Shown: in pieces, positions 2,361 to 5,590 of the stretch
How the letters are laid out: every line of letters begins with the position of its first letter
How positions within the stretch are numbered: position 1 is the stretch's first letter
Origin: a virus
Lineage: Duplodnaviria; Heunggongvirae; Uroviricota; Caudoviricetes
Direction: 5' to 3' (one strand)
Length of the DNA: 6,554 nucleotides
Virus record (IMG/VR): IMGVR_UViG_2695420685_000018
Notes under the pieces: model-generated
Seen by the model: only the letters and a program-made list of their open reading frames with translations
Database searches by the model: none
Told to the model about the DNA's origin: nothing
Translations under genes and position numbers: made by a program

Positions 2361-2488
2361 CCGCCAACGACTTTCGCGTGCAGGCATTAAAAATTTTGCA
2401 GTTCCATGCCTAGTTGAAACCTCGATTTCTATAACATCCAATTTTGTAAATTTAGATATAGCTCAACTTTTCCCAATGTTTTCAAGTG

Positions 2489-2494
2489 TATAAA
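2489..2494 (+). promoter_or_regulatory. Candidate sigma70 -10 element (TATAAA) for the plus-strand 355-aa gene; no convincing -35
   Basis: Seen in sequence: TATAAA about 60 nt upstream of the ATG at 2556 in an AT-rich tract. The gene is antisense to the phage late operon and so needs its own promoter somewhere in 2400-2555. Weak call. Confidence 0.25.
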
Positions 2495-2544
2495 AACAAT
2501 TGGCGTTACGCCATAACACTATACTTAGGATAAGTAAAGATTTT

Positions 2545-2550
2545 AAGGAG
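2545..2550 (+). promoter_or_regulatory. Shine-Dalgarno AAGGAG for the 355-aa gene
   Basis: Seen in sequence: aaggag at 2545-2550, 5 nt upstream of the ATG at 2556. Confidence 0.7.
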
Positions 2551-2555
2551 TTTTA

Positions 2556-3623
2556 ATGAGTCAACATCAATATTATCCACAGCTGAAATGGAAGCCTGCT
2601 GAATATGAATCTCTGATGCTTTTAGATCAAACTACGCTCTCTGGTTTTACTCCGATCATTACCATTCCAGACATAGACTGGGATTATGAAAACGAATGCT
2701 ACAAGAAGAGTTTGAGTTCTTACTTATCTGACTTCGGTATTAACCTTGCGGCATCCTGGAAAGCCAATCGTCCTGTTTTGCTGGATGTTAAATATTTAGA
2801 TAAACATGGTTCGAGCCGCCATCATCCTCTAGATATGTGTATCCAAGATGCTAGAGTAAATGGTAAGGAAATTATCCCTGTTGTTTCTCCCGCATATTCA
2901 ACAAACTATATACATGCTGTTCAACGCAACTTAATCAATGGGCTCGCTATATCTATCACCCCCCAGACATGGCACCAATTCACAAGTCTGGTTAACCACT
3001 TAAATATTCATCCTAGTTTAATTGATGTAATCATTGATTTTGGAGATATTCAAAACGCAACTGATAGTTTAAAACAACAAGCATTAAGCATGGTCAACAC
3101 ATTATCAGGCCAAGCTCCGTGGAGAAACTTGATTTTATCTTCAACCGCATACCCGGCATCACAGGCAGGGATACCGCAACATCAAGTTCATCATATTCCG
3201 CGCCATGAATACGATCTTTGGATGTACGTAGTACAGAATTTTAGCAATGGAAGAACGCCAAGTTTTAGTGATTATCCCACCGCTAGCTCTACCATTACGA
3301 GCGTAGACCCACGCTTCATGTCTCAGTATGTCTCAGTGAGATATTCGAACGATACCTCATGGATCTTTGTAAAAGGTACCGCAGTTAAAGGAAATGGATG
3401 GGGCCAAACTAAAAACTTATGTACTACCCTTGTTAGTTCGCCAGAGTATCAAGTCTTTGGCTCCAAATTTAGTTGGGGGGATGATTACATTTACCAAAGA
3501 TCATTAGGCGCTAACAAATCTGGCGGCTCTAAAGAATGGCGTAAAGTTGCACATACGCACCATATTACGTTAGTCGTGAGACAGCTTTATTGGTTGGCGC
3601 AGACTCAGCCTGCCAAGCCTTAA
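2556..3623 (+). CDS. Hypothetical protein, 355 aa, no confident family assignment; first gene of the cos-proximal AT-rich insert
   Basis: ORF track 2556..3623 (+). ATG preceded by a strong SD, long ORF in a low-GC segment, no predicted transmembrane stretch or signal peptide by eye. Unverified impression only: resembles proteins annotated as 'beta family' or 'sce7725-like'. Requires a profile search. Confidence 0.8.
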   Translation: MSQHQYYPQLKWKPAEYESLMLLDQTTLSGFTPIITIPDIDWDYENECYKKSLSSYLSDFGINLAASWKANRPVLLDVKYLDKHGSSRHHPLDMCIQDARVNGKEIIPVVSPAYSTNYIHAVQRNLINGLAISITPQTWHQFTSLVNHLNIHPSLIDVIIDFGDIQNATDSLKQQALSMVNTLSGQAPWRNLILSSTAYPASQAGIPQHQVHHIPRHEYDLWMYVVQNFSNGRTPSFSDYPTASSTITSVDPRFMSQYVSVRYSNDTSWIFVKGTAVKGNGWGQTKNLCTTLVSSPEYQVFGSKFSWGDDYIYQRSLGANKSGGSKEWRKVAHTHHITLVVRQLYWLAQTQPAKP

Positions 3624-4185
3624 CTTTCCAGCCTACGCGTTTCTTTAAGGCTGTTCTGACTTCAGGCCTGAGATTCGCTATTGGAATATTTTCCGCAATA
3701 ATATTCCATAACTCAAATCGGGGCTTGCTTTTGATTCCTTTGGAATAGCCCCATCGTTCAAGTACGTCGATACATTCATCTTTCCAAAGCAATTGAGCGA
3801 GCATCAATGTGTCATGGTTTCGATTAAGCTTTTCTCCACGCATGTGCTTTATAAGAATGGCGCCTTTTGGCCCAACAGAAACCGTTTTAACGCCCCACCA
3901 ACCTGGGATTAACTTTAATGCTCCCTCAAGGTGTTTCTCAGCTACGACAAGAGTAACCTTGTCCATTACAGAAGAATAATGCTTGATTTGAAGAGGCAAA
4001 CGCTCCAAAGAGTCATATTCACTTTTGAGCTCGTACCCGTGTATAACACCATTTATTACAGCAATGTCTGCTCTACTGGCGCCAAGGGATATGGAAAATT
4101 CATCGACCACAAGGCAGTCTGGATCTAAATGCGATTCTTTCAAAAGCTTATGATGCACCGCGAACCTAACATCTTGATCTTTCAT
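3565..4185 (-). CDS. Hypothetical protein, 206 aa, with an N-terminal PD-(D/E)xK-like nuclease motif (putative nuclease); second gene of the insert
   Basis: ORF track 3565..4185 (-). ATG at 4185-4183 preceded by AAGGAG. Residues ...VVDEF(28-30)...RADIAV(38-43)...GYELKS(50-55) fit the hydrophobic-strand-D / hydrophobic-strand-E-x-K arrangement of PD-(D/E)xK nucleases (inference from motif spacing). Unverified impression: resembles 'sce7726-like' or MmcB-like proteins. Confidence 0.75.
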   Translation of the reverse strand: MKDQDVRFAVHHKLLKESHLDPDCLVVDEFSISLGASRADIAVINGVIHGYELKSEYDSLERLPLQIKHYSSVMDKVTLVVAEKHLEGALKLIPGWWGVKTVSVGPKGAILIKHMRGEKLNRNHDTLMLAQLLWKDECIDVLERWGYSKGIKSKPRFELWNIIAENIPIANLRPEVRTALKKRVGWKVKAWQAESAPTNKAVSRLT

Positions 4186-4190
4186 GACTT

Positions 4191-4196
4191 CTCCTT
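4191..4196 (-). promoter_or_regulatory. Shine-Dalgarno AAGGAG for the 206-aa gene
   Basis: Seen in sequence: plus ctcctt at 4191-4196 is AAGGAG on the minus strand, 5 nt upstream of the ATG at 4185. Confidence 0.7.
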
Positions 4197-4213
4197 ACTC
4201 CCTCCGTTATTGA

Positions 4214-4219
4214 ATTATA
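4214..4219 (-). promoter_or_regulatory. Candidate sigma70 -10 hexamer (TATAAT, perfect consensus) for the 206-aa gene
   Basis: Seen in sequence: plus attata at 4214-4219 is TATAAT on the minus strand, about 29 nt upstream of the ATG. The -35 position is occupied by a tandem direct repeat rather than a TTGACA-like hexamer. Confidence 0.45.
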
Positions 4220-4222
4220 GCG

Positions 4223-4242
4223 CACTGCATTTTACTGCATTT
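4223..4242. repeat. Tandem 10-bp direct repeat (cactgcattt / tactgcattt) overlapping the -35 region of the 206-aa gene promoter; candidate operator
   Basis: Seen in sequence: 4223-4232 cactgcattt and 4233-4242 tactgcattt, 9 of 10 identical, head to tail, immediately upstream of the TATAAT element on the minus strand. Confidence 0.6.
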
Positions 4243-4535
4243 GAGAGATTTGACCACTTCAATCACAAAATGCTTATCTGCAGCAACAAGATTCATAGCC
4301 ATACGACTATGGTGATTACCTTTTGTCTGGAAAACTGACCATTCCACGAAGATCAGATAGGTCTATAGAATCTTGGTTTGTCATAGCGTTCGTCTTACTT
4401 TGAGATGAACCTTTGCTGCATAGGAGATCAGCCCGTCAAGGCTCACCAGCACTAACTGACTACTCAAAGGCTCATTCCAAAGGGTTTGGTTCGACGTGGT
4501 TGAGTGCGCTGCGGTGCGCGGTGAAATACCTGTAC

Positions 4536-4566
4536 AAAAATGCCCCGCATCTGCGAGGCATTTTCC
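4536..4566 (-). terminator. Intrinsic terminator-like hairpin downstream of Rz, with some bidirectional potential
   Basis: Seen in sequence: plus aaaaaTGCCCCGCATCTGCGAGGCAtttt. On the minus-strand RNA this is a 7-bp GC-rich stem (GCCUCGC/GCGGGGC, one G-U pair), 4-nt loop, followed by AUUUUU. It lies about 40 nt past the Rz stop. On the plus strand the stem carries a C-A mismatch and a shorter U tract. Confidence 0.55.
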
Positions 4567-4601: not shown

Positions 4602-5060
4602 TTATTTTAAGCACTGCGTCCTGATGTACTCCTGCAGGTAGTTGACCTGAGCGGTTATCTTGTCGATTCCACTTCGGAGACGGTAATAATTGAGTTCAGC
4701 ATCTGCTGTAAGTCTTGGGCTTTCTCCATCGCCCATGCTGCTGGCTCCGGTCGTTGACTTTGCACAGGTGGCGGCGACTTGCAGGCGCTTACGCCCAGCA
4801 GAAACATCAGCACGAAGACTTTCGATAGTCGCGTTAGCATCAGCAAGCTCCTTTGTGTATCTGGCGTCGAGTTCTGCTACATCACGCTGACGCATCTGCA
4901 TGTCAGTAATTACCACGTTCGCCAGCTTCAGTTCTCTGGCATTTTTGTCGCGCTGGGCTTTGTAGGTAATGGCGTTATCGCGGTAATGATTAACAGCCCA
5001 TGACAGGCAGACGATGGTGCAGATAACCAGAGTATAAATAATCGCTGCGACTCTGCTCAC
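4602..5060 (-). CDS. Rz: Rz, inner-membrane spanin subunit (lambda Rz-like)
   Basis: ORF track 4602..5075 (-). From the GTG at 5060 the product [48 protein letters not shown]... is near-identical to lambda Rz ([48 protein letters not shown]...) from memory. The GTG start overlaps the endolysin TGA stop (GTGA). The upstream in-frame codon at 5075 is TTG and has no lambda counterpart. Confidence 0.88.
4655..4840 (-). CDS. Rz1: Rz1, outer-membrane lipoprotein spanin subunit, embedded in the +1 frame of Rz
   Basis: ORF track 4655..4846 (-). From the ATG at 4840: [36 protein letters not shown]..., i.e. a signal peptide with lipobox V-S-A-C followed by a Pro-rich segment, entirely inside Rz in another frame. 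This is the defining Rz1 architecture (established knowledge). Confidence 0.85.
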
Positions 5061-5590
5061 TGATCTATCCCCCAACAGGCTAATGCGCTTTCCTGGTCAC
5101 GACGAATAACCTGTCCATAGCAGTTATTTGAACGTATGCGGCAATCGCGCCCACCATCTTTTATCCACCAGCGAATCGCCTCGCATGCGCCCTTACGATC
5201 ACCGGCATTCAGCCGCTTATAAAACGTCGACGGGAAACACTTACCGGGGCCAATGTTATAGGGACAGAATGACGCTATACCCGCTTTCTGTGGTTCGGTC
5301 AGTGGTACTTTAATATTGCGCTCCACCCATGCCAGCGCCTTATCACGTTCAATAGCGTTAACCTGGTCGCATTTTTCCTTCGACAGCTTCATTCCCGGTA
5401 TGACGGGCTTACCATCCACCATTGTGGCACCACGACAGATGGTCCATATACCGGAACCATCGCGGTATGCCGTAGTGTGGTTACCCTCTTTTTCATCCAG
5501 AAACTGGTCAAGTATTTGAGGAGCAGACGCGCCTGCAGCAATCAGCGCCAGAACAGCAGCTGACAGGCCGTATTTGATTTTTGCGCTCAT
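5057..5590 (-). CDS. R: SAR endolysin (T4-lysozyme-type muramidase, phage 21 R / DLP12 RrrD-like), 177 aa
   Basis: ORF track 5057..5590 (-). N-terminal Gly/Ala-rich weakly hydrophobic segment [16 protein letters not shown] (signal-arrest-release type) followed by the catalytic spacing E35-x8-D44-x5-T50 ([16 protein letters not shown]), as in P21 R and T4 lysozyme E11/D20/T26 (established knowledge). Confidence 0.9.

Follow-up and report, generated by a model that had tools for sequence, protein, structure and literature searches.

Two genes that run towards each other in the analysed viral DNA share the last 59 bp of their coding sequences, and our analysis supports with good confidence an overlap that is real and inherited, namely a fixed-phase, tail-to-tail interlock of a beta-family and an sce7726-family gene that was lengthened by a stop loss in E. 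coli and E. albertii, the 3′ ends of the two mRNAs being presumably complementary. The window denotes here the whole stretch of DNA that was analysed (6,554 nucleotides). As judged by sequence comparison, the 59-bp overlap is the local form of a phylum-spanning, phase-locked interlock in the beta/cII core, a family-wide trait that had been missed in an earlier reading made from the letters of the window alone (the sequence-only reading). The features that carry the argument were located as follows.

2371–4380, no strand assigned: low-GC insert (moron), approximate extent, between cos/small terminase and Rz
2556–3623, plus strand: beta-family gene, 355 aa, relative of P4 beta and PD-Lambda-2_C
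3565–4185, minus strand: sce7726-family gene, 206 aa, relative of P4 cII
3565–3623, both strands: convergent overlap, encoding beta residues 338–355 (plus strand) and sce7726 residues 189–206 (minus strand)
3585–3587, plus strand: Leu344 codon, the last conserved residue of beta, invariant in the beta alignment A2
3628–3630, minus strand: Trp186 codon, the last conserved residue of the sce7726 domain, nearly invariant in alignment A1
3613–3615, minus strand: Trp191 codon TGG of sce7726, where the closest relatives have the stop TAG
3568–3612, minus strand: the other 15 codons of a 16-codon extension (QAESAPTNKAVSRLT; first codon, Trp191), antisense to the C-terminal helix of beta
3565–3567, minus strand: present sce7726 stop TAA, antisense to beta Ile338/Thr339 and adjoining the conserved His-His motif

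Both open reading frames matched family profiles over their full length (PF14350 and NF033832) and can, therefore, be regarded as genuine genes. The plus-strand product belongs to the Beta_protein family (PF14350; E=8e-56, 190.4 bits against a cut-off of 27), with residues 6–342 aligned to positions 1–342 of the 342-position profile. It also matched phrog_9159 (E=7e-153) and, among the PADLOC models, 'beta' (E=3.5e-10) and PD-Lambda-2_C (PDLC03984, E=4.4e-32; PDLC03983, E=2.2e-25). The minus-strand product is a member of NF033832 (E=2e-54, 184.1 bits, cut-off 70; residues 1–183 on positions 1–182 of 184), its homologues carry PF26915, and it matched the PADLOC 'cll' model, which is the model of P4 cII, at E=3.8e-31. 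The AlphaFold model of beta (mean pLDDT 91.7) displayed a TIM-barrel fold with a long C-terminal helix that is confident at residues 325–350, and the part of beta within the overlap comprises the end of this helix and a five-residue tail. The sce7726 model (mean pLDDT 88.1) presented an alpha-beta-beta-beta-alpha-beta core with a D...(D/E)xK motif, which places the predicted structure in the PD-(D/E)xK restriction-endonuclease-like fold. Profile searches of the PDB sequences with beta and with sce7726 gave no match for either. An AAGGAG Shine-Dalgarno site lies ahead of each gene. A tandem exact duplication of 10 nt (ATGTCTCAGT twice, 3318–3337) was also seen in beta, inside the conserved FMSQYVSVRYS motif, and is probably a coincidence of the codons used. 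A literature search on PF14350 and 'beta family protein' yielded nothing but TGF-beta and importin papers that do not concern this family, and 'sce7726' was mentioned only in passing, in genome papers, in the literature searched.

The flanks of the gene pair are those of a lambdoid E. coli prophage, with the large and small terminase genes on the left and Rz (Rz1 nested), lysozyme and holin on the right, all on the minus strand. The pair itself had been taken for an insert, and the base composition and the alignments confirmed this: the GC content is 33–46% in this segment against about 50–55% in the flanks, insert-less prophages align with the window as far as about 2363–2370, and the backbone homology, which breaks near 2364–2371, returns near 4381, where the P22-like Rz-rha DNA homology begins. 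The insert measures about 2.0 kb and contains beta, sce7726 and their upstream regions only. Its site, between the lysis genes and cos, is the classic 'moron' position. The window holds a second case of overlapping genes in its backbone, an Rz1-like lipoprotein ORF (4655–4846, minus strand) nested out of frame in Rz (4602–5075, minus strand); Rz1 inside Rz is the classical embedded spanin gene pair.

The ORF listing places the beta stop TAA at 3621–3623 on the plus strand and the sce7726 stop TAA at 3565–3567 on the minus strand, and the shared stretch of 59 bp (3565–3623) is coding on both strands. The identical CDS pair with the same overlap is annotated by RefSeq/PGAP (WP_000077907.1 and WP_000654791.1) in E. 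coli DA33133 and other strains. Both sources agree with the sequence-only reading, which had described two converging insert genes with these stops and this overlap. From the coordinates, the codon positions are paired as p1:p1, p2:p3 and p3:p2, and each wobble position faces the second position of the partner. The junction (3480–3720) is at least 99% identical in 127 of 5,426 complete E. coli genomes. It also occurs in E. albertii, and 15 independent contigs from gut metagenomes contain it, 12 of them with a beta protein 99–100% identical to that of the window.

The wider family was sampled by scanning one genome per species with the sce7726 profile and keeping the best 80 of 206 matches, a non-random set with 37–85% identity. 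These 80 loci form 49 clusters at 70% identity, and 79 of them contain both genes. They represent Proteobacteria, Firmicutes, Bacteroidota, Patescibacteria (candidate phyla radiation), Nitrospirota and Myxococcota, and Actinomycetota were found among the phage and plasmid records. Within these 79 loci from the best 80 of 206 matches, the two genes were convergent in every case, overlapped in 77 (11–336 nt, median about 50) and kept the same reading phase in 75. The pair is a conserved antiparallel overlapping gene pair whose phase is kept in distant genomes, and at the family level the overlap is beyond chance. The overlap measures 11 nt in Edwardsiella, Klebsiella, Pantoea, Pectobacterium and many gut contigs, and 18 nt once; Photobacterium and Xenorhabdus have a small gap without overlap. 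Independent annotations gave overlaps of 41 nt (Rac-SA53), 47 nt (Agrobacterium), 32 nt (Rhodococcus) and 62 nt (Acinetobacter). When plasmid records were selected through beta alone, sce7726 was annotated under the beta match in 16 of 21, and all informative metagenome contigs selected in the same way had a convergent sce7726, the metagenome scan with the beta alignment A2 covering close relatives only. In Gordonia phage DumpsterDude (L084, MT024859), an unannotated sce7726 homologue was observed at 2956–3633 on the plus strand (HMM E=1e-63), sharing 89 nt with the beta-like gene 33; the annotation shows instead gene 32, a small ORF on the opposite strand.

The codon of the last conserved sce7726 residue, Trp, and that of the last conserved beta residue, Leu, lie exactly 1 nt apart in 67 of 75 loci, and the conserved [KR] that follows the sce7726 Trp shares 2 nt with the beta Leu codon. 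The conserved ends thus interdigitate, which leaves no neutral insertion point for spacer DNA. In the window, the Trp186 and Leu344 codons are 40 nt apart, and an in-frame spacer of 39 nt is found in its clade. Codon-position entropy tracked the sce7726 frame as far as the junction and the beta frame from there on, and this switch indicates that each tail is a passenger of the partner's conserved coding sequence. A recurrent backstop for sce7726 stops was located antisense to the HH[IL][TK] motif of beta in the junction displays of 14 loci. No extra wobble-site conservation was found in the overlap, the sole reduction being explained by two-fold-degenerate His, Asn and Gln codons. With the last conserved codons abutting at typically 1 nt, each ORF must read on antisense into the conserved C-terminal coding sequence of its partner until a chance stop is reached. 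The outcome is a variable overlap length, one fixed phase and tails that evolve as the passengers of the partner. No description of a phase-locked tail-to-tail interlock of the beta/cII core was present in the literature searched.

Insertion sequences were observed in three cassettes. Beta was truncated and sce7726 left intact by an IS66-family element in E. coli RM10410 (L087, 292–844) and by an IS30-family element in Acinetobacter pNDM-AP_882 (L118, 1401–3268). These two cases show that the nuclease-like protein is tolerated without full-length beta, and they speak against beta acting simply as an antidote to the nuclease. In E. coli CUVET17-972 (L088, 506–1734), IS2 lies about 150 nt upstream of beta, on the small-terminase side of the cassette, and may have altered beta expression.

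The greater part of the 59 bp is younger than the family trait. In the DNA alignment, the window has CCA at a position that reads CTA (TAG on the minus strand) in the loci of Edwardsiella, Klebsiella, Pantoea and Pectobacterium. The substitution T>C at 3614 turns the sce7726 stop TAG into TGG and is silent in beta (Ala353, GCT>GCC). Because of this change the ORF runs 16 codons further, to the TAA at 3565–3567, which accounts for a protein of 206 aa in E. coli compared with 188–193 aa in nearly all homologues; in the closest relatives it has 190 aa and ends in ...KV(R/K)(V/A). Hence, 48 of the 59 bp stem from one stop-loss substitution that is specific to E. coli and E. albertii. Residues 189–206 have pLDDT values below 50 (34–38 in the extension), the tail is predicted to be disordered, and the extension has no counterpart in homologues. 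On the plus strand, this DNA codes for the confidently modelled C-terminal helix of beta, and the extra 48 bp therefore look neutral; both sequence and model describe what is probably a recent stop loss with a neutral added tail. The 59-bp length bears no sign of selection and looks accidental. In the enterobacterial clade of the window, a 39-nt in-frame spacer separated the conserved ends, leaving an 11-nt overlap, and the T>C change in the E. coli/E. albertii lineage, by adding 16 codons, extended it to 59 bp.

The sequence-only reading had further held that no terminator can sit between the genes and that each transcript must, therefore, run into the partner. The former stands, as the overlap leaves no intergenic space. 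The latter stands in part: an intergenic terminator is indeed absent, but a terminator inside the partner ORF, or Rho, could in principle end the transcript. The signals around the two genes are listed below.

2452–2494, plus strand: promoter-like block upstream of beta, TTAGATATAGCTCAA ... TATAAA, from the alignment of the window with four related loci (L002–L005)
2501–2513, minus strand: small hairpin TGGCG-TAA-CGCCA with a T run, in the beta leader, 43 nt upstream of the beta start
4214–4256, minus strand: predicted sce7726 promoter region from a promoter scan, with TGGTCA-16-TAAAAT (4256–4229) and a perfect TATAAT (4219–4214)
4537–4564, no strand assigned: bidirectional terminator-like hairpin (inverted repeat I18, 13-nt arms, 92% complementary)

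The upstream blocks of both genes were conserved in four other genera, and a simple consensus scan gave no promoter call for beta. A direct repeat, ATGCAGT-AAA-ATGCAGT (4240–4224, minus strand, copies 10 nt apart), overlaps the predicted sce7726 promoter and is conserved in Edwardsiella, Klebsiella, Pantoea and Pectobacterium; by its sequence it looks like an operator. Intrinsic-terminator-like hairpins in the partner gene downstream of either stop were present at 8 and 13 of 72 loci, compared with 6–11 of 72 in the controls, and were not enriched. RNA folding of four stretches around the overlap gave z-scores from -1.2 to +0.95 and hence no special structure, and an Rfam scan of the whole window at E<=1 gave no match. 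An 8-bp stem (3616–3623/3645–3652) and a 14-nt inverted repeat around the overlap (3530–3543/3634–3647) were set aside as chance occurrences that are not conserved in relatives. The small hairpin in the beta leader, also not conserved in relatives, could end sce7726 read-through transcripts after they have crossed the whole of beta. For a beta transcript, the first strong hairpin is the one at 4537–4564, whose arms (AAAATGCCCCGCA/TGCGAGGCATTTT) lie just downstream of Rz in phage backbone DNA common to P22-like phages.

Each gene has a promoter of its own, and no terminator is at hand to separate the transcripts; their 3′ ends are therefore expected to be complementary. The two mRNAs would be complementary over at least 59 nt and the polymerases would meet head-on, from which reciprocal dampening by polymerase collision and by RNase III cleavage of the duplex would be expected. 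Such dampening may explain the retention of the convergent layout, while Rho-dependent termination may take place soon after each stop. The ORFs themselves need not overlap, since the genes of P4 and of two relatives do not. Transcriptional interference or antisense regulation between beta and sce7726 is plausible from the arrangement of the sequence, and the sequence-only reading, taken as a whole, was a reasonable inference that is partly supported.

Among the competing explanations, there is next to no chance that an error in sequencing, a frameshift or a wrongly annotated stop produced the overlap and that the true genes lie apart. An sce7726 ORF that is 16 aa longer than nearly all homologues does carry the '3′-end extension' signature flagged by Palleja et al., but the identical sequence is present in 127 complete genomes and many metagenome contigs, the window differs from its relatives by a base substitution without an indel, and these relatives still overlap by 11 nt, overlap being the norm of the family. 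Given the junction in the complete genomes, the metagenome contigs and E. albertii, a sequencing, frameshift or assembly artefact is excluded; we rejected it at the DNA level, which also settles the possible frameshift that the sequence-only reading had raised. We further consider it very improbable that the tail is adaptive, i.e., that the 16 extra sce7726 residues provide a new function, such as partner binding or a degradation tag, and that this benefit favoured the longer overlap. The long allele has reached fixation, being carried by all 127 cassette-bearing E. coli genomes and by E. albertii, and extended tails arose independently in other lineages (P0002, P0043 and P0045). However, fixation says little when the E. 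coli copies are almost clonal (identity of at least 99%). The model predicts a disordered extension, the beta helix encoded on the opposite strand determines its sequence, and the tails of close relatives vary in length and sequence.

A selected antisense switch deserves more weight than either of these, although we hold it only tentatively. Here, the convergent, terminator-less layout itself would have been selected, and mutual repression by collision and RNase III cleavage of the 3′ duplex would set the ratio of beta to nuclease or make their expression mutually exclusive. In the prophage, a Q-antiterminated late minus-strand transcript would run through the cassette in the sense direction of sce7726, hence antisense to beta, and would silence beta and boost sce7726 in lytic growth. 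In all four phage contexts (the window, Rac-SA53 (L083), P4 (L082) and DumpsterDude), sce7726/cII was co-oriented with the adjacent upstream phage operon and beta opposed to it, the operons being late genes, early genes, int or a lysis cassette. Besides this orientation, the switch is favoured by convergence in 79 of 79 loci (from the best 80 of 206) and in P4, the absence of a spacer in 67 of 75, the lack of enrichment of embedded terminators, the own conserved promoter of each gene, with an operator-like direct repeat at that of sce7726, and the description of the module as toxin-antitoxin-like and abortive-infection-like (PMC9122126, PMC9519451, bioRxiv 10.1101/2023.04.06.535777). Against it, overlap lengths extend from zero to 336 nt, P4 works as a defence system despite a 27-nt gap and a terminator hairpin, neither extra wobble conservation nor conserved RNA structure was found, and the IS-destroyed beta genes beside an intact sce7726 speak against a strict antidote relationship. 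We regard as rather unlikely the broader proposal that the interlock is a selected antisense toggle across bacterial phyla, repressing both genes mutually by head-on transcription and 3′ pairing, and that PD-lambda-2 shares a hidden fourth gene. The conserved layout could also be simple inheritance of a cassette that moved horizontally as a unit; with no neutral insertion point between the ends, it could persist without regulatory benefit. The preferred explanation remains the inherited, fixed-phase interlock with a lineage-specific stop loss.

To our knowledge, conserved long antiparallel overlaps of two real protein genes are rare in bacteria, and the known examples seldom extend past close relatives. 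A single phase and a single spacing kept across phyla would make this junction a clean natural case of mutual constraint between dual-coding ends. The beta/sce7726 pair is, moreover, the core shared by two anti-phage systems that have been validated experimentally, and their working model would be reshaped to include a nuclease-fold cII/sce7726 protein that always faces beta, joins PD-lambda-2 operons and tolerates the loss of beta. If the toggle were true, the dominant promoter, or read-through from an invading or resident phage on one strand, would decide whether the nuclease is made. The overlap can also make gene callers and manual annotators miss the partner gene, as in DumpsterDude.

The way in which the overlap grew has a known parallel. 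Rogozin et al. reportedly described in 2002 long convergent overlaps that arise through stop-codon loss. The usual origin of such overlaps is a stop-codon mutation, and their conservation beyond close species is rare (Palleja et al., 2008, PMC2478687). In the window, the growth from 11 to 59 nt is of this kind, with a point-mutated stop and a 3′ extension into the convergent neighbour. However, stop-loss overlaps are mostly found in very close species (PMC2478687), whereas the beta/sce7726 pair has retained its overlap and phase in different phyla, even where protein identity falls to about 37%.

Type I toxin-antitoxin pairs with 3′-overlapping convergent RNAs, such as txpA/RatA and bsrG/SR4 of B. 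subtilis, offer a regulatory comparison. They share with the window the convergent units and the prophage or defence context, and 3′ pairing with RNase III as the effector would be expected here as well. They differ in that the partners in the window are two sizeable proteins, with neither a small hydrophobic toxin nor a non-coding antitoxin RNA. Excludons and non-contiguous operons (Listeria, S. aureus) likewise couple genes of opposite orientation through overlapping transcripts. The window pair resembles them in orientation and in its possible coupling by transcript overlap, but these systems are defined by mapped long antisense transcripts and not by a dual-coding overlap of conserved protein ends.

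The closest relatives are two defence modules, P4 gop-beta-cII and PD-lambda-2, of which the window pair is, by its gene content, the gop-less two-gene core. Only this core is carried, as gop and the PD-lambda-2 components A and B are missing. When the window and the 80 loci (the best 80 of 206 matches) were searched with phmmer, gop homologues were absent throughout. The small ORFs of the insert had no PADLOC match, with P4 Gop as positive control recovered at E=4.8e-70. Upstream of beta, the window has no ORF, and it contains neither a third conserved gene nor the HigB-like A and Xre-peptidase B.

The P4 gop-beta-cII locus is said to have been described by Ghisotti et al. in 1990, and in P4 gop lies upstream of beta and is co-transcribed with it. 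The window has the adjacent beta and cII homologues of this locus and lacks the upstream gop. A tblastn search with the window sce7726 found P4 cII at 27% identity, the RefSeq name of P4 cII is 'sce7726 family protein', and P4 beta was matched by HMM at E=9.5e-13. Furthermore, beta and cII are convergent in P4 too, and both loci are on a mobile phage-type element adjoining cos. In contrast to the overlap in the window, the P4 genes are separated by a gap of 27 nt, in which a strong hairpin bears the annotation of cII terminator, P4 cII has 264 aa with an extra C-terminal part, and gop is present. The P4 locus confers protection from lambda and P1, and gop is toxic when beta is absent (Rousset et al., 2022, PMC9122126), its toxicity in the gop-beta-cII context being triggered by phage orf184 (bioRxiv 10.1101/2023.04.06.535777). 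Protection is known only for the gop-containing P4 and ECOR59 loci (PMC9122126; bioRxiv 10.1101/2023.04.06.535777), and the module has been called toxin-antitoxin-like and abortive-infection-like (PMC9122126, PMC9519451, bioRxiv 10.1101/2023.04.06.535777).

With PD-lambda-2, the window shares the beta-related component C (E=4e-32 to PD-Lambda-2_C), which is 'related to a P4 antitoxin' and required for defence (Vassallo et al., 2022, PMC9519451). As defined, PD-lambda-2 differs in having three co-directional genes without a cII-like component (PMC9519451), and the window is without A and B. In 24 of the 80 loci (the best 80 of 206 matches), PD-Lambda-2_A (HigB-like) and PD-Lambda-2_B (Xre-M78 peptidase) precede beta, which is then followed by a convergent, overlapping sce7726. 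Examples of this A-B-beta-sce7726 order are L033 (3974–7140), L038 (3028–6318) and Agrobacterium pAt1D1460 (L116, 246–3606). The arrangement suggests, from gene order, that sce7726 is an unrecognised fourth component of PD-lambda-2.
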